Shown: piece after piece, positions 2,456 through 9,619 of the stretch
How the letters are laid out: each line of letters begins with the position of its first letter
How positions within the stretch are numbered: the first letter of the stretch is position 1
DNA from: Candidatus Heimdallarchaeota archaeon
Lineage (GTDB): Archaea > Asgardarchaeota > Heimdallarchaeia > Heimdallarchaeales > Heimdallarchaeaceae
Length of the DNA stretch: 11,528 nt
Direction of reading: 5' to 3'
Assembly (NCBI GenBank): GCA_021399395.1
Contig: JAAFKJ010000121.1
Span: forward strand, 1 to 11,528
Notes under the pieces: generated by a model
What the model was told of the DNA's origin: nothing
The model's input: the letters and a program-made list of their open reading frames with translations, nothing else
The model's database searches: none
Position numbers and translations under genes: made by a program

Positions 2456-4555
2456 TTATATATGATTTTTTAATACTATTTCCTTGTTGTAATCAGGAAT
2501 TAAAACATTTTTGTGCTCCTTTCTAAGTACTGAGTTGTCGGGGGTATGAACCATCACTTTTCTTCCCTTCAGTTGAGCAATAAAATCATTTAATCCTTGA
2601 GAATTTGTGTGCCCACTTATGGGAGCTGAAAAGACTTTCTGGTGATATCTTTGCTTTGCAATAGGTAGTGAATTTTGGAGTGCAAATCCTAAAGTGTTAG
2701 GAGCTTGATACCCACAAAGCAATACGCCTGTATTTGGGTCATCTTTGGTAGCATCGAGTAAGTTTCTTGCAGTTCCTCCTTGGAGCATGCCATGTCCTGT
2801 AACAACTATATCATTCTCCTCAAAATTGTTTAGCGAAACACCTTTAACAATGTCATAATTGCCCTTGATTCCCATAACTTTGGAAACGTCAGCTGCTAAA
2901 CCTGTAGTTTTAATATTCTTCTTTGTTGAAACTCTTAAGCGTTCTAAACGTCTTATCATTTCTTGAGTTCTTCCAACTGAAAATGCTGGGATGATTAACC
3001 TATCACAGTTTTCAGCTGCTTGTAAGATTACTGTGTTAGGATCTATATTCTCAGTCTTTCTGTTGTAATATGTACCATCAAATATGGTTACATCACTATC
3101 AACTGGGAATTTAGCTCCATTAAATAACTCACTTGAATCCAATGAAAAATCTCCTGTAAAGAATATACTTTTTCCAAATACATTGATTTTGTATCCTACA
3201 CTACCGAATATGTGCGAAGCGTGATAAGGCGTAACCTCAAAACCAGGACTCACTTCGACGGTTTCATTAGGCGTTAAGGGATTGAAAGCATTTGACAGAT
3301 TGATGATGTTGGAATTATTTAGATAAGCTGCTTGTAAGGGCGTAGCTTTCTTTTTAGTAATTCCATTCTTTCTTATGATTGAAGTAGTAGATTTATGCAG
3401 CTTCTCTGTTAGTATTTTGGTTGATTGTGTTGCATACCACATTTTACCGTTTTTAGGAGTAATTAAGTAAGGAAGTCCACCAGTATGATCTAAATGTGCA
3501 TGAGTTACGAGAACTGCTTTAACATACTTAAGTGCAGGATGCCATCTTGGTATAGAGTTATTTGCAACACTCATTCCAAAATCCATCAAAATAGCATTGT
3601 TATCATGTTGAACCAAGATTCCCATATTGCCGATATTTCCTCCTCCAAGGAAAGTAATTCTGATCTTTTGCGCGACTGAAGGACTGGAATAAGCATGCAT
3701 TGAAGCATATTCTTTTACTACCTCTCTAGGGAATTTAGATAATTTTTCCATTGAAACTGCTTTAGCGTCAATTTTGGAGAGGTGATTTTGTAAGATTGGA
3801 TCTACTACTGTAGGAACAATAGGAAACTTATCTTCTTTGTATTTAGCCTCAATCATCTTCTGAAATTCTGCCATAGAGGTTTTCTTTTCCAACCTTATTT
3901 CTGAACTTAAGGATTTTGAATAGAAATATGCTATTTCATTAAGTAAACCTTGGTCTATATGAAAGTCAAGATACTTAAAGAGTTTAGGTGAGATTGAACT
4001 TGCTATCTCTTCTAAATACTGCGATCGTGTTTTAAGATTAGATAGAATTCTGTCAACATCTTTTCCTATTGCTATGTCCTTTTCTGATAGAATATTTTTA
4101 GAAATGTTTTCTCGAGTTAATTTTGCATATTTTGAGAAGTTCTGAGGTTTAACACCCAATTTTCTTGTGAATCTTAAGAAGTTGTAATAGTTATATTTAA
4201 TTTTCTTTTTCTTAGAGTGAACCCAGAAACTATATACCAGAATCTCTTCTTCTAGAAGTAAATTTGTCTCCAGCTCTTGAAGAACTGATCTAAAAAGTTC
4301 GAAATTAATTGCATCTAACCAATATAGAGCAAATAAATAATATTCTGAAACTTCAGAGAAGTTCTCAGTTAATCCCACCCATGAAATATCAAAAATATTG
4401 ATTAAATTTGTATTTTTGCATATAAAATAGGGATCAGTACTGTTTTTTACAAAATCCCTACAATCATCGTAAATTTTCTGAAAGGTTTTGTTAAGTTTTA
4501 AATTTGGTTTTATTTTCATAATAAATTCCAAAAAAGTGGTCATATCGTTTGTCAT
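2456..4555 (-). CDS. Metallo-beta-lactamase/beta-CASP family nuclease (CPSF73/aCPSF-like) with long N-terminal extension
   Basis: The C-terminal ~400 aa carry ITFLGG, LMDFG, THAHLDHTGG (HxHxDH), HASHIFGS, FTGDF, DGTY (motif A), IIPAFSVGRTQE, GMLQGG, GYQAPNTLG, SGH (motif B) and VMVH (motif C). The N-terminal ~295 aa are unrecognised. Confidence 0.88.
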   Translation of the reverse strand: MTNDMTTFLEFIMKIKPNLKLNKTFQKIYDDCRDFVKNSTDPYFICKNTNLINIFDISWVGLTENFSEVSEYYLFALYWLDAINFELFRSVLQELETNLLLEEEILVYSFWVHSKKKKIKYNYYNFLRFTRKLGVKPQNFSKYAKLTRENISKNILSEKDIAIGKDVDRILSNLKTRSQYLEEIASSISPKLFKYLDFHIDQGLLNEIAYFYSKSLSSEIRLEKKTSMAEFQKMIEAKYKEDKFPIVPTVVDPILQNHLSKIDAKAVSMEKLSKFPREVVKEYASMHAYSSPSVAQKIRITFLGGGNIGNMGILVQHDNNAILMDFGMSVANNSIPRWHPALKYVKAVLVTHAHLDHTGGLPYLITPKNGKMWYATQSTKILTEKLHKSTTSIIRKNGITKKKATPLQAAYLNNSNIINLSNAFNPLTPNETVEVSPGFEVTPYHASHIFGSVGYKINVFGKSIFFTGDFSLDSSELFNGAKFPVDSDVTIFDGTYYNRKTENIDPNTVILQAAENCDRLIIPAFSVGRTQEMIRRLERLRVSTKKNIKTTGLAADVSKVMGIKGNYDIVKGVSLNNFEENDIVVTGHGMLQGGTARNLLDATKDDPNTGVLLCGYQAPNTLGFALQNSLPIAKQRYHQKVFSAPISGHTNSQGLNDFIAQLKGRKVMVHTPDNSVLRKEHKNVLIPDYNKEIVLKNHI

Positions 4556-4642: not shown

Positions 4643-5494
4643 CTATTCTTCTTCTTCTTTAGTGTCACTCTCAAGAAGACTACTGAAAGCGTCTCTTAAT
4701 TCGCCTTGTAAAGCTTCTTTCATTTGTTTTGTGGATCTTCCAGGTGCTGCTGGTGCAGCGGATGGTGTAAAGTCCTTCTCTTCATCATCATCGTCGGAGG
4801 TACGTGATGCTCTTTTTGCTAGTGCATCTTTAACTTCCATATTCAAAACCATAGAAGCTGGCATTGATCCGGTTTCTCCTGCAGCTTCTTGTCTTTCTCG
4901 TCGGTGTTCGTCTTGGTCTACTTTGGTTAAACCTGCTCGAACACCTTGAATGTCATTAGCACTAACACCAAAAGGACTGAAAGCTGGCGATGCTTCTCCT
5001 GGAGCTCCTGGTTCTCCTGGAACTGGTTCTGGTGCTTTCTGCAAACCAGCAGCTGCTTTCATTAAATCTGAACTACTAATTCCTCCACCTGTAGCTCCTT
5101 GAGCTCCTGAAGGTGCTGGAGCGCTACTTAAATCCGGTGCAGCTGATGAGAGATTGGGTGTGCTTGGCGCGGCAGAGAGATTGGGTGCACCTACTGAACC
5201 AGAACTTGCTGCTGCAACTGGTGCTGCAACTGGTGCTGCCGCTGGTGCTGCCGCTATTGGAGCTGCAGCTGGTGCTGCTCTAGCGGCTGGTGCTACTCCC
5301 CCTAATGCTCTTTCAACTGCAGTTATCCGTATGTCCAAAGAGTTAATAAAATCCTCCATCCTCTCTGTTGATTTTACCATTATTGCACCGAAATTTTCAA
5401 GCAATTTAGTAAGCTTCATAATGGCTTTTTTAGAGGGTTCTGCAGTACCAGATAAGAGACCGTCTAGATAATCATCAATTGACACTTGTATCAT
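4643..5494 (-). CDS. Hypothetical, largely disordered Ala/Pro-rich protein with N-terminal coiled coil, two WH2-like motifs and central/acidic-like segments (candidate actin regulator)
   Basis: Long ORF filling the gap between two real genes. The likely start is ATG 5494 (MIQVSIDD), preceded by GGAG and a TTTTATAT box, rather than the ORF-track 5539; GTG 5485 is also possible. The CDS is well supported; the function is an inference from the motifs described in the findings. Confidence 0.8.
   Translation of the reverse strand: MIQVSIDDYLDGLLSGTAEPSKKAIMKLTKLLENFGAIMVKSTERMEDFINSLDIRITAVERALGGVAPAARAAPAAAPIAAAPAAAPVAAPVAAASSGSVGAPNLSAAPSTPNLSSAAPDLSSAPAPSGAQGATGGGISSSDLMKAAAGLQKAPEPVPGEPGAPGEASPAFSPFGVSANDIQGVRAGLTKVDQDEHRRERQEAAGETGSMPASMVLNMEVKDALAKRASRTSDDDDEEKDFTPSAAPAAPGRSTKQMKEALQGELRDAFSSLLESDTKEEEE
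5117..5185 (-). repeat. Three degenerate intragenic peptide repeats P[ND]LS(S)A(A)P
   Basis: The translation reads PNLSAAP-ST-PNLSSAA-PDLSSAP, and the DNA shows GAGATTGGGTG twice. Confidence 0.7.
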
Positions 5495-5510
5495 GTAAAC
5501 TCCAAAAACG

Positions 5511-5526
5511 TGATATAAAAAGTCTA
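5511..5526 (-). promoter_or_regulatory. Putative TATA box for the Ala/Pro-rich protein gene
   Basis: The minus strand reads AGACTTTTTATATCA, about 20-28 nt upstream of ATG 5494. Confidence 0.5.
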
Positions 5527-5569
5527 TGATATTCCTCAAATAGTAAGATAAGAAATAAAATAGGATGTG

Positions 5570-6592
5570 CTATTTTAAGACTTCAGAAATGGAGTTGATT
5601 ACAGTTTCTACGTGCTCAGTAGTGATGCCAAAGTATGTAACCATCCTAAACAGCTGATCTCCCATATGAGTAACAAGTATCCCCTTCTTCTCTAATTTAT
5701 CAGAGACATCACTAGCTGATAGTTGACTCTCAGTGGTATCGACGATAACGATATTAGTATCTACTGGCTTAACTATGAAACTTTCAATTTCCTTCAGCTT
5801 CTCACCAAGCATTTGAGCATGTTTATGATCTTCTGCTAATCTGTCTATCATATTGTTAAGAGCGTAAATTCCAGGAGCAGCAATTATACCAGCCTGTCTC
5901 ATTCCCCCTCCTACAACTTTTCGATTTCTTCTTGCTTCATGAATAAACTTCTCTGTACCGACAATCAAAGAACCTATAGGACAACCTAAACCTTTACTCA
6001 AACAAATTTGAACACTATCAACATTCTCAACAATTTTAGCTGCAGGCATACCTGTTGCAACAGCTGCATTGAACAATCTAGCTCCATCTAGGTGAACGAG
6101 ACCACCATTGTCATGAGCTATTTCTGAAAGAGTATCTATATTCTCCTTAGGAATGATTTTACCTCCACCTCTATTGTGAGTGTTTTCAAGACATAGTAAT
6201 CTAGGAGTAACTCGATGAATGTTATAAGGATCAGTAAAAATAGCCTCTACATCATTTGGATTCATTAAACCGTTATCACCGTTAACAATTAGAGGATAAC
6301 CTCCACTTATCTGAGAAATTCCTCCGACCTCGTATAAATTAATATGACACTCTTTTTCTAGAACGACCCCATCTCCTCTGTGTAGATAAGACATATGTGA
6401 AACCAAGTTTCCTTGAGTGCCACTAGAAACTAACAACCCCGCTTCCTTACCAAGCATTTTTGCAATAAGTCCTTCCAGTTCAATTACAGTTGGATCTTCT
6501 TCCCAAACATCGTCTCCCAGTTGTGCATTCAATATTGAATCCATCATCTCTTTTGATGGAAGAGAAAAAGTATCAGAACGTAAGTCAATCAT
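5570..6592 (-). CDS. ltaE: Low-specificity L-threonine aldolase (PLP-dependent)
   Basis: MIDLRSDT, GDDVWEEDPTV, SGTQGN, LENTHN, HLDGARLFNA, PLP-lysine motif CLSKGLG and GGGMRQAG. The 340-aa length is typical for the family. Confidence 0.95.
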   Translation of the reverse strand: MIDLRSDTFSLPSKEMMDSILNAQLGDDVWEEDPTVIELEGLIAKMLGKEAGLLVSSGTQGNLVSHMSYLHRGDGVVLEKECHINLYEVGGISQISGGYPLIVNGDNGLMNPNDVEAIFTDPYNIHRVTPRLLCLENTHNRGGGKIIPKENIDTLSEIAHDNGGLVHLDGARLFNAAVATGMPAAKIVENVDSVQICLSKGLGCPIGSLIVGTEKFIHEARRNRKVVGGGMRQAGIIAAPGIYALNNMIDRLAEDHKHAQMLGEKLKEIESFIVKPVDTNIVIVDTTESQLSASDVSDKLEKKGILVTHMGDQLFRMVTYFGITTEHVETVINSISEVLK

Positions 6593-6613: not shown

Positions 6614-6630
6614 AGTTTTAAATCTTTACC
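6614..6630 (-). promoter_or_regulatory. Putative BRE/TATA promoter for ltaE, overlapping the upstream gene's stop codon
   Basis: The minus strand reads GGTAAAGATTTAAAACT, with TTTAAAA about 25-30 nt upstream of ATG 6592. Confidence 0.45.
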
Positions 6631-7196
6631 TTTTTCGTCCTCTTCTTCCTAAACATCGTCGGCATTAAAACTAAACAAAATAATATGGGTGTATATTCAA
6701 ATAACAAGGCTGTAGTAGTATTCTCAACTATTTCGATTTGGATTGTATCTGAAACACTCTGAATGTTATCAGCTGAAAGAGTAAAAGTTACATTCGCAAG
6801 ACCTATCTCAAGAAAAGTAAGATTACATTTAGCTATCTCTATTTCTCCGGGTGCGAGGTCAGTAATTGAACCCTCTAAGTATAATTCACCCTCACTAACT
6901 TTGACATTGGCATCGATTTTAACATTTTTAATTTCTGCCATAGAAAATTGACCGCTATTCTTAACAGTGATATTTACAAAGAGAGGCTGATTCAGGATTG
7001 CAGGAGAAGGATAGGTTTCAATTTTTATGATTTCGAGTATTGTCTCATTCTCAATGATATTTTCAGATAACACTAATCCATTTTCAAACTCCTCAGAATA
7101 ATCTGCTAAGCATACGGATGGAGCAATACTGATTGTTAATAGAATTATAAGAGAGATAAATGAAAAACTAAGAATGTAAACAGCTTTAGTTTTCAT
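6618..7196 (-). CDS. Secreted/surface protein with signal peptide, CARDB-like Ig-fold domain and C-terminal membrane anchor
   Basis: N-terminal basic plus hydrophobic signal (MKTKAVYILSFSFISLIILLTISIAPSVCLA), CARDB-like motifs (VNITVKNSG, LAPGE, NVTFTL) and a C-terminal TTT-ALLFEYTPILFCLVLMPTMF-RKKRTKK. The start could instead be TTG 7211. Confidence 0.7.
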   Translation of the reverse strand: MKTKAVYILSFSFISLIILLTISIAPSVCLADYSEEFENGLVLSENIIENETILEIIKIETYPSPAILNQPLFVNITVKNSGQFSMAEIKNVKIDANVKVSEGELYLEGSITDLAPGEIEIAKCNLTFLEIGLANVTFTLSADNIQSVSDTIQIEIVENTTTALLFEYTPILFCLVLMPTMFRKKRTKKVKI

Positions 7197-7265
7197 TGTT
7201 GTTACCTTCAATGTAATTATGTCTCTAGAACCATATGAATATATTGGAACTGAATAAAAATTCGA

Positions 7266-7302: not shown

Positions 7303-8091
7303 ATGAAGATTTTCAAGATTTACTCTGAGTATGCTAGAGCATACCATGAGATGTACCAATCTATATTTGACTATGAAGAAGAATTTAAAATTTACGATAA
7401 ATATCTTTCAAAGATCAAAGCTAAAAAAATTCTGGAATTAGGCTGTGGGAGTGGAAACATGGCTAAATTGTTCATAAAGAACAAATATGATTACATAGGT
7501 TTGGACTGTTCTAAAGAAATGATAGCTCTATCAAAAGAGTTTGTACCCAAAGGTAAATTCCTTTTGGGCGATATGCGAAATTTAGAATTAGAAGAAACTT
7601 TTGACGCAGTTTTGGTAACAGGAAGAACTTTTACTCACATGACCACTAACCATGATGTAATGTTCGCCTTAAACTCTATTCATGAAGTATTGAACCACGA
7701 GGGTTGGCTGATTTTTGATAATTTTGACGCTTCAATCATATTTACAGATTTCAGAGAGACATCTCAAAACAAAACAATGTTTGAGAATCGTAAGTATCTT
7801 AGACTTAGTGAAACCTCCTTCGATTTTAATCATGGATGGACATGGAAATGGAAATCTCATTATGAGGTAATTGAGGAAGAGAAAAAAGAAGAATTTGAAG
7901 ATGAGATTACCCTTCGAGCATTTACAGAAGATGAATTGAGATTGTTTTTAAGCATTAACGGTTTCAAGGTCTGTAATATGGAAAAATCCGCTAATGCTAT
8001 CCTAACAGTAGCACAGAAAATAAATGAAGAAAAGACTAATGCTCAAAATATCTATTTCAAGCAGAAGTTAAATGATATCAGTGAAACTTAA
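7303..8091 (+). CDS. Class I SAM-dependent methyltransferase (small-molecule type)
   Basis: Motif I ILELGCGSG, GLDCSKEMI, GDMRNL, FDAV and LxxxGWLIFD, followed by a beta-rich cap typical of Methyltransf_25-like enzymes. The 3' end overlaps serS by 14 bp. Confidence 0.9.
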   Translation: MKIFKIYSEYARAYHEMYQSIFDYEEEFKIYDKYLSKIKAKKILELGCGSGNMAKLFIKNKYDYIGLDCSKEMIALSKEFVPKGKFLLGDMRNLELEETFDAVLVTGRTFTHMTTNHDVMFALNSIHEVLNHEGWLIFDNFDASIIFTDFRETSQNKTMFENRKYLRLSETSFDFNHGWTWKWKSHYEVIEEEKKEEFEDEITLRAFTEDELRLFLSINGFKVCNMEKSANAILTVAQKINEEKTNAQNIYFKQKLNDISET

Positions 8092-9619
8092 TTGTCTCAG
8101 GTAGTTTATCGATATATTTCAAGAAAGGTTCAGGCCAATTCTTTTGGTCTAATCCCTTTTGTGATATAAAGGCTGTTAGGAATCTCTCGAACGAACCACC
8201 ACAACATCCTGACCATAGTTCTACATTTCCTTCAGCTTTTACAGAGAAACCTTTAGGATATTTAGTCCCTATTATAGAAACATTCTGTATCTCTAACCAC
8301 TCACTTTCTTCTCGTGTTCCTCGGTAAGGCATGTATGCTTCATAATCAATGGTTCCTACTAGATCTGTTTCTTTGTCCATCTTCTGTTCACTAGCAGATT
8401 GTTGTAACCACCAAGGCATAACTTGTGCTTCTCTAACTTCTAGGTCAAGAACCTCATTGAAGATTATCCTCATCTTGTCTCTTACAGCTGTTCCAGCCTT
8501 CTTAGCTTGTTTTGGTGAACCAATAAACAATGTTTCAATACGATGGAGTTCATCGACTCGTTCGAAACCATATGCTGATCCAGCTTCATATCTGTAGGTA
8601 GGTCCTGACCAATCATAGATTTTTATTGGAAGACTGCTCTTTGCCAAGGTTTTTCCCTGCAACCAAGCCCAAAATGGAGGGCATTGAGCATATGATAAAC
8701 CTCCTATTGGTGCAGTTACTTTCTCAGCTAATTTTTCTGTAGGTATTGTTTTAGTAATTGTAATATAATCAGCTATCTCCTCAAAATATTCGGGTGTTGG
8801 TTCTTTAGGTTGAACTACAAAATATGGTTCAAATCCTCCTTGGTAAATTCCTTCAGCGTGTTCGGATCTTAACCAAATTGACCAATCTACAAGTTTTGGT
8901 ATCATCATCTGATCATACCCTAAAGGTTTGTAGATGTAATCGACCATTATCTGTTTCATAGCTTCTGCTAGAGTGGTTATTGTTGGAGATAATATCCATT
9001 GATTTCGATAGTTAGTTCTCTGTATCCAATTTGCTTCTTGCATAAGAGTTGTAGGATTCTGGTCTGTAAACAATTCTTTTTCCCCACTCGACCAGACTAT
9101 CTCATGGTGCTCTTTCTTCGCTCCATAGTGCTGTTTTGCTGCTTTATCATTAACTCTGCGAACAATACGCTCGATAGTTCCTTTTTCCACAAAATCTTCT
9201 GGTATTTCTGGGTCGATTTCGATTTTTGCGTAAAACTTGTCTTCTTTTTTGCTGAATTCGATTTTCTTTGTTAAAGGTAGAGTAAATTCTTTCAGAGGTT
9301 CTTGCTCAATTTCAGTTTCAATGGTATATTTTCTAAACTCAAATCCTCTCAATCCCACACGATATTTCTTACCAATGGCTTCAGCCAATTGTTTTCGAAT
9401 TCTAAGGAGTGCTACATGTGGTGGAACTGAATTAACTGAAGCAATAACAAAGCTCAGTTGATTTCCATCTGCATTGATATTTGTTATTGCAAACTCACCC
9501 TCCTTTTTGGATTCTTGTGTTTTTTCAACAAATTGATTAAAGAATTCTGTTAAATCTTCAGAACTTTCATCTGGTAGGGGGCCACTCAGATTGAAAGCAG
9601 CAGCTAAGTAATGTTTCAT
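8078..9619 (-). CDS. serS: Seryl-tRNA synthetase, methanogen-type (Zn-dependent SerRS2)
   Basis: N-terminal alpha/beta tRNA-binding domain with HVALLRIRKQLAEAIGKKYRVGLRG, plus YAQCPPF, class II motif 2 SGPTYRYEAG...GFERVDELHRIE, EWLEIQNVS and motif 3 WSGCCGGSFERF. The Cys/Glu/Cys zinc-ligand pattern is retained. Confidence 0.92.
   Translation of the reverse strand: MKHYLAAAFNLSGPLPDESSEDLTEFFNQFVEKTQESKKEGEFAITNINADGNQLSFVIASVNSVPPHVALLRIRKQLAEAIGKKYRVGLRGFEFRKYTIETEIEQEPLKEFTLPLTKKIEFSKKEDKFYAKIEIDPEIPEDFVEKGTIERIVRRVNDKAAKQHYGAKKEHHEIVWSSGEKELFTDQNPTTLMQEANWIQRTNYRNQWILSPTITTLAEAMKQIMVDYIYKPLGYDQMMIPKLVDWSIWLRSEHAEGIYQGGFEPYFVVQPKEPTPEYFEEIADYITITKTIPTEKLAEKVTAPIGGLSYAQCPPFWAWLQGKTLAKSSLPIKIYDWSGPTYRYEAGSAYGFERVDELHRIETLFIGSPKQAKKAGTAVRDKMRIIFNEVLDLEVREAQVMPWWLQQSASEQKMDKETDLVGTIDYEAYMPYRGTREESEWLEIQNVSIIGTKYPKGFSVKAEGNVELWSGCCGGSFERFLTAFISQKGLDQKNWPEPFLKYIDKLPETIKFH

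Follow-up and report, generated by a model that had tools for sequence, protein, structure and literature searches.

An Asgard-restricted helix and proline-arm protein family with repeated LKKV-type motifs, a possible actin-assembly factor of Heimdallarchaeia

The gene and its upstream region

The window, a stretch of 11,528 nucleotides from a Heimdallarchaeota genome, carries at positions 4643..5494 of the minus strand a gene for a protein of 283 amino acids plus stop codon. The ORF list and its translation place the ATG at 5494 and the end of the stop codon at 4643. The first-pass annotation of this DNA numbered residues from an upstream TTG at 5539, where the ORF-track count begins, and the ATG numbering used throughout this report is therefore obtained by subtracting 15 from those residue numbers. 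The ATG-equivalent is the start in most orthologues. On the minus strand the ATG is preceded at a distance of 5 nt by a GGAG (5500-5503), and a T/A-rich TTTTATAT box occupies 5513-5520. Reading the sequence, we infer that these elements (5500..5520, minus strand) function as upstream signals of the 283-residue gene, and we refer to them as putative. The stop of the upstream gene lies at 5570, which leaves an intergenic gap of 75 nt. The GC content of positions 5001-5500 is 0.478 versus about 0.35 elsewhere, and this rise matches the stretch that encodes the Ala/Pro/Gly-rich arm of the protein.

Module architecture of the 283-residue protein

The modules that had been listed for positions 4643..5494 from the DNA letters are all present: an N-terminal helix, an Ala/Pro arm, two copies of a short motif, a helix ending in KR with an acidic run, and an end helix with an acidic tail. 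Module positions are given in ATG numbering, all features lie on the minus strand, and the helices and pLDDT values are taken from an AF2 model of the 283-residue protein. The mean pLDDT of this model is 59.6, and the chain is predicted to be mostly disordered.

The N-terminal 'head' (residues 5-63; 5306..5482) contains two AF2 helices, a short one at residues 6-14 and a long one at residues 22-63, the latter with block pLDDT values of 83-94. Helix 22-63 is presumed to be a coiled-coil oligomerisation element. The head is followed by a disordered Ala/Pro-rich arm (residues 64-137; 5084..5305) in which Pro, Ala, Gly and Ser make up 78% of the residues by composition count and the pLDDT is below 50. 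Residues 103-124 of the arm (5123-5188) hold APNLS, TPNLS and APDLS repeats; among 56 relatives P104 is invariant, and N105 and L106 are nearly so. The repeats grow into tandem GGPNLGG-type arrays in other families, and the arm of one family (L070) contains poly-Pro runs.

Two WH2-like motifs are found beyond the arm. Motif 1 (residues 138-156, GISSSDLMKAAAGLQKAPE; 5027..5083) consists of a helix at residues 141-149 and then L151-Q-K153-A-P. Its 17-residue core, G138-A154, reads GISSSDLMKAAAGLQKA, and the nearly invariant residues are A147, A148, L151, K153, A154, and P155. Motif 2 with its flanks (residues 172-203, FSPFGVSANDIQGVRAGLTKVDQDEHRRERQE; 4886..4981) comprises a helix at residues 179-188, the sequence L189-T-K191-V, and a charged helix at residues 194-206. 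The 17-residue core of this second copy, G176-V192, reads GVSANDIQGVRAGLTKV, its counterpart in Heimdallarchaeum genomes is LKKVDPDAHKKE, and the region includes the nearly invariant residues G176, S178, G188, L189, K191, H197, E200, and R201. In both motifs the short predicted helix stands immediately before L-x-K-[A/V], so that L151-Q-K-A and L189-T-K-V are each preceded as in WH2, where an amphipathic helix leads into an LKKT/LKKV-type motif.

The 'C-like' amphipathic helix with a basic end (residues 211-232, MPASMVLNMEVKDALAKRASRT; 4799..4864) corresponds to AF2 helix 213-233, which terminates in KRASR ahead of DDDDEEKDF. In alignments the C-like helix pairs with the E-L-K-x-x-L-x-R-R-R helices that end the proteins of the pan-Asgard mini family, and in one Heimdall family a third LKxV motif occupies the aligned position. 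The acidic run (residues 233-243, SDDDDEEKDFT; 4766..4798) has a net charge of -6 and contains a Phe (F242) and no Trp; of 23 aligned relatives, most have F at this aromatic position and two have L or I there. The gene closes with the end helix (residues 253-278, RSTKQMKEALQGELRDAFSSLLESDT; AF2 helix 255-282), the acidic tail KEEEE, and the stop codon (4643..4738). The end helix is the best-conserved segment of the protein, and its A269 and F270 are invariant among representatives of nine diverse families. Similar Q-G-E-L-x-x-x-[FL] helices are found at the C-terminal end of the ~150-residue pan-Asgard proteins.

A pan-Asgard family with short and long forms

The gene is real and conserved. 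Sixty relatives were found, and every one with a source name is a 'hypothetical protein' from an Asgard or Heimdall MAG. The archaeal context suggested by the first-pass annotation is borne out, as the contig is assigned to Asgard and the relatives are of Heimdallarchaeaceae type. Judged from its sequence, the 283-residue protein belongs, as the long form of the Heimdall lineage, to a pan-Asgard family of ~150-residue proteins built from a head helix, a Pro arm, and an end helix. Within its own genome the 283-residue gene is the sole match to a profile of seven short-form proteins (A7; E 2.8e-8, model positions 13-126), and the reverse search with a long-form profile retrieves ~155-residue proteins whose end helices align. 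The protein belongs to the family by its head and arm, which match the profile, and by its terminal Q-G-E-L-type helix.

The short form is present in 303 of 400 Asgard genomes and in 76 of the 90 high-quality ones. Within the databases searched the family is Asgard-restricted, and 11 matches to it were found among 1.84 billion representatives. The long form was found in 0/22 of the f5 family, which belongs to the same class, although actin is present in most f5 genomes, a point against an actin role. In the large family f20 the head-helix/end-helix module forms the C-terminus of a GTPase of the Gtr1/RagA/Arf type (Pfam 86.4 and 82 bits). The family search returned no fused forms among longer proteins (757-2160 residues), which is weak evidence, and a search for near relatives with a diverse profile gave nothing new. 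In the ESM Atlas the best score of the whole protein was 0.83, to unnamed Asgard clusters, and residues 136-283 had no usable match among the named clusters. A description of the family was not found in the available portions of the literature on Asgard actin, WH2, the WASH complex, nucleation promoting factors, and Heimdall profilin.

The pan-Asgard spread of the short form and the C-terminal fusion to a GTPase in f20 both favor a reading in which the protein would be the adaptor of some other conserved partner in Asgard archaea, such as a small GTPase system or a complex associated with membranes, and the Heimdall L-x-K motifs would serve as extra docking sites for that system. We regard this reading as somewhat unlikely. 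In the available part of one report, an Arf GTPase was enriched when Lokiactin was co-immunoprecipitated in L. ossiferum (bioRxiv 10.1101/2025.11.30.690169), and ties to a GTPase and to actin may therefore coexist.

Repeat statistics and conservation of the motifs

The motif copies constitute a real repeat. Motifs 1 and 2 form the top ungapped 17-mer self-match within residues 130-283 (BLOSUM62 score 38, 7/17 identical), and this score was reached in 11 of 1000 shuffles. Over 56 relatives each motif has a mean column conservation of 0.80; the N-terminal helix reaches 0.84 and the end helix 0.92, with values of 0.47-0.61 in the linkers. Copy number varies across the other Heimdallarchaeia families, which have one, two, three or four motifs, and many of these copies read LKKV, LKKA or LKKAP and then continue into acidic residues. 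The motifs that were first noticed in a single protein are thus conserved among its orthologues, with the canonical LKKV in the more distant ones. The best-known parallel of the LKKV/LKKAP form and of the tandem layout is found in actin-monomer binders, which argues against an adaptor for some other partner.

The motifs of family f3 suggest a further alternative. They read D-D-L-K-S-A-L-S-S-L-K-K, and their L0/L4/L7 spacing with a basic end equals that of the genome's own ESCRT-III tails, ...DDLENEIQKLRRK and ...SDLEAELEGLKKK, and that of the MIM1 consensus. The host genome encodes both ESCRT-III and a Vps4-type MIT protein. The protein could accordingly be a multivalent ESCRT/Vps4 adaptor whose repeated, MIM1-like helices bind MIT domains and recruit or regulate the ESCRT-III disassembly machine. 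We consider this improbable, as Ala or Arg occupies the central hydrophobic position in the family of the 283-residue protein (A148 is nearly invariant) and the motifs lie within the chain and are neutral to basic, where MIM1 is acidic and C-terminal. When a profile built from 18 motif copies was searched against 12,103 ORFs of the host genome, it found only the 283-residue protein; the genome's own gelsolin ORFs were not matched, and its ESCRT-III ORFs were not among the 25 best rows. There is also no ESCRT gene in the neighborhoods examined.

Searches for similarity to known actin factors

The WH2 character proposed for the modules was not recovered by profile searches against Pfam WH2 and the PDB, which returned no WH2, WASP or VASP similarity. 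Pfam WH2 (PF02205, cut-off 23.1 bits) gave no match at E <= 10 in 44 family proteins (1 + 23 + 9 + 12, with the 283-residue protein counted in both of the first sets). A six-frame WH2 search of 83 genomes of the class yielded none over the cut-off and no listed place on family loci; at E <= 1, 6/14 control genomes also gave matches. The helix hydrophobics of the motifs are located approximately one residue further from L-K-K-V than in canonical WH2. A ~740-residue ORF of genus g14 showed sub-threshold WH2-HMM matches in at least nine genomes, which were taken as chance. By eye this ORF has neither the helix+LKKV module nor a Pro-rich arm, and it was rejected as a WH2 lead.

In the PDB, the profile of 18 motif copies matched no WH2, thymosin, WASP or VASP chain, and its best match was viral nsp3 (E 0.46). 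Residues 135-283 of the 283-residue protein returned 0 matches, and the C-terminal half of an f3 orthologue returned only an unrelated dehydrogenase (E 1.2). A profile of 15 E-L-K-x-x-L-x-R-R-R helices gave three weak unrelated matches and no VASP chain, in a PDB copy that may be without a VASP chain containing the G-actin-binding site. The whole-family profile matched coiled-coil and collagen-like low-complexity chains only, and the PDB matches of the head helix were generic coiled coils (HA2, GCN4-adhesin, and tropomyosin-like; E >= 0.0076). Foldseek comparison of the mostly disordered AF2 model with the PDB produced no match at E <= 0.001. That every test of homology to actin factors was negative is a further point in favor of an adaptor with a partner other than actin.

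The commonest Pfam match in the 23-member scan was CCDC53 (PF10152, cut-off 24.6 bits), which recurs in the other scans. It was matched in 6/23 (best E 0.0076), 1/9, and 3/12 proteins, and only one of the 44 proteins scored above the cut-off (L031, 25.5 bits; L074, L077, and L080 scored 23.5, 15.2, and 13.7 bits). The 283-residue protein itself scored 13.7 bits (E 0.086), below the cut-off. A six-frame CCDC53 search found matches at E <= 0.01 in 15/400 genomes and none over the cut-off in any of the 400, and 1/15 of the listed places fell on the family. The CCDC53 matches are at the level of coiled-coil noise. There was no WH1, SHD or WAHD1 Pfam match in the 283-residue protein, and WASH_WAHD was matched in one short-form relative only, at 12.9 bits (cut-off 24.2).

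Actin machinery of the host genome

The proposal of an actin regulator presupposed an actin in the same organism, and the genome search for actin homologues found two actins resembling those of eukaryotes, which score 448 and 437 bits against Pfam Actin, together with gelsolins, an actin-related paralogue, and an ARPC4-like ORF (30.6 bits, cut-off 22.2). Actin was found in 29/31 relatives. Of an Arp2/3 complex, the ARPC4-like ORF is the only component found in this organism. Searches of the host genome, which is 81.8% complete, did not find ARPC2, ARPC3 or ARPC5; as the same searches matched no control genome, the absence of these subunits is unproven. The actin-related paralogue is full-length in only 21/83 genomes of the class (g1, g9, and f2) and is absent from f3, f4, f7, and g12, all of which have the coiled-coil family protein. 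Its distribution is narrower than that of the coiled-coil family and does not track it.

These observations bear on the claim of the first-pass annotation that the gene encodes a WASP/WAVE/WASH-like nucleation-promoting factor. In its strict form, the protein would be a true class I NPF homologue whose VVCA module activates an archaeal Arp2/3-like machine. The module order does match (assembly helix, Pro arm, two V-like motifs, KR helix, and acidic run), the genome holds the ARPC4-like ORF and the actin-related paralogue, and the head helix of one orthologue exceeds the cut-off for CCDC53, a WASH complex subunit. Against this, the acidic run lacks a Trp and its Phe is not universal, CCDC53 reaches its cut-off in that one protein and in no genome of the six-frame search, and a third LKxV motif takes the position of the 'C' helix in one family. 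The patchy occurrence of the actin-related paralogue and the failure to find ARPC2, ARPC3, and ARPC5, in searches without a positive control, also weigh against it. We therefore disfavor true class I NPF homology, which we consider highly improbable. What stands of the original claim is the conserved module order, the Asgard contig, and the actins; the WH2 match, the Trp, and ARPC2/3/5 were not found.

A Heimdall profilin is reported to bind polyproline (PMC8410842), which, with the poly-Pro runs in the arm of family L070, counts in favor of an actin role. The available portions of the published work name profilins and gelsolins as the only Asgard actin regulators (PMC9433394, bioRxiv 10.1101/2025.11.30.690169), and to that extent the slot of an assembly factor is therefore vacant.

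Gene neighborhood

No actin-like gene was present in 46 long-form and 57 short-form neighborhoods (103 in total), 30 of the 57 short-form ones having only about 1.5 kb of flank. In 25 related loci, which are those of close relatives, a Thr-aldolase gene (21/25) and a beta-CASP hydrolase gene (23/25) are found on either side. The neighbors in other families are tRNA-intron endonuclease, BacA, ThiI, DEAD helicase, and similar genes, and the short form is accompanied by eRF1-like, radical SAM, Elf1-type zinc ribbon, PGM, and PIG-L genes. In one family only, the short form has a Ras-family GTPase two to three ORFs away. The neighbors are housekeeping genes. The lack of a genomic link to actin in the 103 neighborhoods favors an adaptor for another partner, but the gene context points to no alternative partner either.

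Proposed function and significance

As the best reading, we tentatively propose that the 283-residue protein is an assembly factor that oligomerises and binds several actin monomers, nearer to the tandem-WH2 and VASP proteins than to Arp2/3 activators of the WASP type, a reading that we hold to be possible without calling it probable. For the 283-residue protein, we infer oligomerisation, actin contact, and an effect on polymerisation as follows. The N-terminal helix 22-63 would gather several chains, and the Ala/Pro-rich arm with its PNLS repeats would provide a flexible spacer and possibly a docking strip. Further contacts or regulation may come from the basic helix, the acidic run, and the end helix shared across Asgard. 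The clustered monomers could then nucleate a filament or be supplied to growing ends. Such a clustering mechanism would be akin to that of the tandem-WH2 nucleators or the Ena/VASP EVH2 module, and not to Arp2/3 activation.

The protein could on this proposal represent the first dedicated prokaryotic actin-assembly factor, coiled-coil-clustered and tandem WH2-like, which would nucleate or elongate Asgard actin independently of Arp2/3, with the short relatives as the ancestral actin-docking adaptor and a possible source of the eukaryotic actin-binding helix of the WH2/VASP-GAB type; taken as a whole, we judge this unlikely. The family is conserved, Asgard-only, and combines a putative clustering helix with an arm rich in proline and with repeated helix+LKKV motifs, and it is therefore a concrete and cheaply tested candidate. 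It sits in the archaeal class usually placed nearest the eukaryotes. If actin binding is true, WH2/VASP-style filament assembly would have originated before eukaryogenesis. If the partner is another one, such as MIT domains or a GTPase, the family would still be a new pan-Asgard short-linear-motif adaptor.

Comparison with known systems

Tandem-WH2 actin assembly factors include Spire, Cordon-bleu, VopL/VopF, and the V region of N-WASP. Like the WH2 factors, the family has a predicted short amphipathic helix leading directly into L-[KQT]-K-[VA], with acidic residues behind it, and like the tandem-WH2 factors it carries one to four copies of the motif on a disordered chain near a Pro-rich region and a putative oligomerising element. 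It differs from them in the lack of HMM or profile similarity, in hydrophobic positions that are set approximately one residue further off, and in its archaeal host.

The EVH2 module of Ena/VASP consists of a G-actin-binding site, an F-actin-binding site, and a tetramerising coiled coil, and its mechanism needs no Arp2/3. The family resembles it in having a Pro-rich region, a WH2-like site, an Arg/Lys-ended helix, and a putative oligomerising coiled coil. However, the coiled coil of the family is N-terminal, there is no EVH1 domain, and homology was not supported by the PDB search with the RRR-helix profile.

With the VCA region of WASP/WAVE/WASH the protein shares the order of an assembly helix, a Pro-rich arm, V-like motifs, an amphipathic KR helix, and an acidic run. 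Unlike these proteins it has no Trp and no recognizable WH1, SHD or WAHD1, and unlike their hosts its genome yielded no full Arp2/3, while the occurrence of the Arp-like paralogue is not tied to that of the family. The head recalls CCDC53/WASHC3 and BRK1-type helices, with one long N-terminal helix and, after it, a low-complexity region rich in Pro; it differs from CCDC53/WASHC3 in its score, 13.7 bits versus the cut-off of 24.6, which 1/44 proteins passes.

The MIM1 consensus of ESCRT-III is a C-terminal acidic helix with the spacing L-x-x-R-L-x-x-L-[KR]. An L0/L4/L7-spaced helix ending in Lys/Arg links the MIM1 tails with the motifs of f3, where the fit is close; in the family of the 283-residue protein, with Ala or Arg at position 4, the spacing does not fit. 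In contrast to the tails, the motif is internal, repeated, and not acidic, has a central Ala in the family of the 283-residue protein, and shows no profile similarity.

A further comparison is with the two-domain gelsolins of Asgard archaea. In the crystal structures described in the available portion of PMC9433394, their WH2-like L-K/R-x-V linker lies on actin. Both that linker and the motifs of the 283-residue protein are Asgard segments with an LKKT-like four-residue motif, and the LKKV and LKKAP copies match the form of the WH2 signature described there for the gelsolin linkers. In the gelsolins the motif follows a folded gelsolin domain, whereas in the present family it comes after a short helix that stands free in a disordered protein.

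Module architecture of the window protein

The gene is a 283-codon open frame on the minus strand (4643-5494) with an ATG start at 5494. A longer alternative frame begins at a TTG at 5539; the first-pass annotation based its numbering on it, and subtracting 15 gives the ATG numbering used here. Most orthologues start at the ATG-equivalent position (MI[HQ]VSIDDY or MSIDDY), and a GGAG, preceded by a T/A-rich box, lies 5 nt upstream of the ATG on the same strand. Local GC rises at the gene (0.478 versus ~0.35), coinciding with the DNA that codes for the Ala/Pro/Gly-rich part. On the plus strand, the ORFs that overlap the gene (4662-4949 and 5154-5471) were rejected as its shadows.

An AF2 model built from a 56-sequence alignment is mostly disordered (mean pLDDT 59.6, pTM 0.23), with helices predicted at residues 6-14, 22-63 (block pLDDT 83-94), 141-149, 179-188, 194-206, 213-233 and 255-282. 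Proline, alanine, glycine and serine make up 78% of the disordered arm (residues 64-137), in which APNLS, TPNLS and APDLS repeats are present. The two copies of a 17-residue motif, a helix with L-x-K-[A/V], occupy G138-A154 and G176-V192 and form the best ungapped self-match within residues 130-283 (BLOSUM62 score 38, reached in 11 of 1000 shuffles). Across 56 relatives, conservation is highest in the C-terminal end helix (0.92), followed by the N-terminal head helix (0.84), the two motifs (0.80 each) and the C-like helix ending in KR (0.77); linkers and acidic runs are less conserved (0.46-0.66). Together the predicted helices, the arm composition, the repeat score and the conservation confirm in every detail the modules that the first-pass annotation had described. 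The conservation of the motifs among orthologues, on which its reading depended, extends to other families, where one to four copies occur.

The window protein belongs to a pan-Asgard family

A single-sequence search returned 11 matches among 1.84 billion representatives. All named relatives are MAG 'hypothetical proteins' from Heimdallarchaeota/Heimdallarchaeaceae, which bears out the archaeal context first assigned to the contig, and the portion of the literature covered by our search holds no description of the family. Profile searches located the full-length protein in five families of the class Heimdallarchaeia. This long form, with L-x-K motifs, occurs in 26 of 30 genomes of family f1, the one genome of f2, 11 of 12 of f3, all three of f4 and 11 of 12 of f7, and in none of the 22 genomes of f5 or the two of f6; a narrower profile gave an agreeing distribution.

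Distant long-form members keep the same plan with varied parts. In Heimdallarchaeum genomes the protein bears three motifs, of which the final one is LKKVDPDAHKKE. The f3 proteins carry tandem arrays of GGPNLGG-type repeats (~9-14 copies in two full-length proteins) and three motifs, such as DDLKSALSSLKKVSPEE. Another f3 protein contains four LK[KA]AP-type motifs, one of them LKAAP. Poly-Pro runs, a single LKKAP motif and GELAEKLARRRQ...EDDFD characterize the f7 proteins, and one f4 protein combines a single motif with VLSELSQVLQRRRKR. In a 573-aa ORF of genome G045 (L069:1048-2769:-), GGPN[ML]K repeats, a LSELKDILARRR helix and an acidic tail come after a phage-integrase domain (52.4 bits); here the C-terminal modules of the family are unusually fused, or the frame is possibly mis-joined.

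Beyond the class, the long-form profile retrieves proteins of ~130-170 aa in which a Pro-rich arm links the head helix to a terminal helix (for example RAQMQGELQSFLTRRRAALE). The profile of this short form, made from seven proteins, matched 303 of 400 Asgard genomes, including 76 of 90 high-quality ones, and in the host genome its only match is the window gene (E 2.8e-8). This exclusive match and the cross-retrieval show that the window protein represents a pan-Asgard family in its long, Heimdall-lineage form, in which L-x-K motifs are inserted between arm and end helix.

Genomic context and host cytoskeletal genes

The gene order Thr-aldolase/window gene/beta-CASP hydrolase is kept in 21 of 25 and 23 of 25 related loci, respectively, these loci being close kin. 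The conserved downstream neighbour (2456-4555, minus strand) encodes a 699-aa metallo-beta-lactamase/beta-CASP protein with an unassigned N-terminal extension of ~300 residues. The window also encodes, on the minus strand, a 513-aa class II aminoacyl-tRNA synthetase (8078-9619) with an N-terminal tRNA_bind_4 domain (78.4 bits), which we take to represent the rare 'methanogen-type' seryl-tRNA synthetase architecture, and a 197-aa ORF (6618-7211) with no Pfam match, hydrophobic stretches close to both ends and relatives at only 3 of 25 syntenic loci. Neighbours in other long-form families and of the short form are housekeeping genes; no actin-like gene was found in 46 long-form and 57 short-form neighbourhoods, 30 of the latter having only ~1.5 kb of flank.

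The host assembly (2.8 Mb, 81.8% complete) does encode the actins that the first-pass reading called for. Two actins score 448 and 437 bits against Pfam Actin (mutual identity 83%), and a 489-aa actin-related paralogue (L003:1276-2745:+, contig C149; 196.8 bits) has a Cys-rich N-terminal extension of ~70 residues. There are also a 163-aa ARPC4-like ORF (30.6 bits) and three gelsolin-domain matches. Pfam Profilin matched neither the host nor any control genome, and ARPC2, ARPC3 and ARPC5 were not found in searches of this incomplete genome that lacked a positive control.

Tests for homology to WASP, VASP and WASH proteins

The first-pass annotation had proposed an archaeal WASP/WAVE/WASH-like actin nucleation-promoting factor of VVCA type. 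At E <= 10, Pfam WH2 matched none of the proteins scanned, which were the window protein, a set of 23 relatives, 9 more distant ones and another 12 members of the family. A six-frame WH2 search of 83 class genomes yielded nothing over the cut-off and no listed place on the family; at the lax level 6 of 14 control genomes also gave matches. PDB searches with profiles built from 18 copies of the motif and from 15 RRR-type helices, together with two that used single sequences, recovered no chain of a WH2, thymosin, WASP or VASP protein. Membership in WH2, VCA, CCDC53 or EVH2 is unsupported by the homology tests. In a family without the long form, a conserved ~740-aa ORF (L107:2140-4344:+ in genome G057, with equivalents in genus g14) matches WH2 at sub-threshold scores of 15.7-19.5 bits over model positions 4-19, in at least 9 genomes; it does not read as having a WH2-protein layout, and these matches are probably due to chance.

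Among the weak matches, the one that recurs most in the family is to the WASH-complex subunit CCDC53 (Pfam cut-off 24.6 bits). The window protein reaches 13.7 bits. Matches also come from 6 of the 23 relatives and from an orthologue that passes the cut-off with 25.5 bits, and there are three additional sub-threshold matches. Since the six-frame search placed 0 of 400 genomes over the cut-off, with 1 of 15 listed weak places on the family, and the PDB matches of the head helix are ordinary coiled coils, we take the signal as helix-plus-Pro-rich composition rather than as demonstrated kinship.

An Arp2/3 activator of WASP type is disfavoured because the acidic run of the window protein contains Phe and not Trp, and because the actin-related paralogue, full-length in only 21 of 83 class genomes (genera g1 and g9 and family f2), is lacking from f3, f4, f7 and genus g12, all of which carry the long form. 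The lack of a WASP chain among the PDB matches also speaks against it.

Candidate partners of the motifs

A less likely rival reading is that the motifs are ESCRT MIM1-like helices. ESCRT-III tails in the host genome (DDLENEIQKLRRK and SDLEAELEGLKKK) have a spacing common to the f3 motifs, but the central MIM1 position is Ala or Arg in the window protein's own family, and a motif profile run over 12,103 host-genome ORFs matched the window protein only. Host locus L105 (1438-2717:+ and 2808-3485:+, contig C180) holds a pair of ESCRT-III genes and a gene for a Vps4-type MIT-AAA protein in a row, and both ESCRT-III tails there end in clear MIM1-like helices.

In the large family f20, a Gtr1/RagA/Arf-like GTPase carries the head-helix/end-helix module at its C-terminus, a hint that the family may bind some other partner altogether. 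One such fusion (L079:997-2199:-, genome G277; Pfam 86.4 and 82 bits) ends in a head helix and end helix (QVLDELKQLFNKKK), and similar ORFs of ~412-436 aa occur in at least 10 f20 genomes. One section of a preprint describes enrichment of 'an Arf GTPase' by Lokiactin Co-IP (bioRxiv 10.1101/2025.11.30.690169, section 9).

Actin regulation, of a tandem-WH2 or VASP-like rather than a WASP-like kind, is the best single mechanism suggested by the sequence, and we put it forward tentatively, as a reading that may well prove wrong. One study shows that in Asgard gelsolins an LKKT-like segment lies on actin (PMC9433394). The motifs resemble WH2-type actin-monomer sites in their amphipathic helix, L-K-K-V/A and acidic residues and in their tandem arrangement with variable copy number, and their setting is alike as well, a disordered chain joined to a presumed oligomerising helix.
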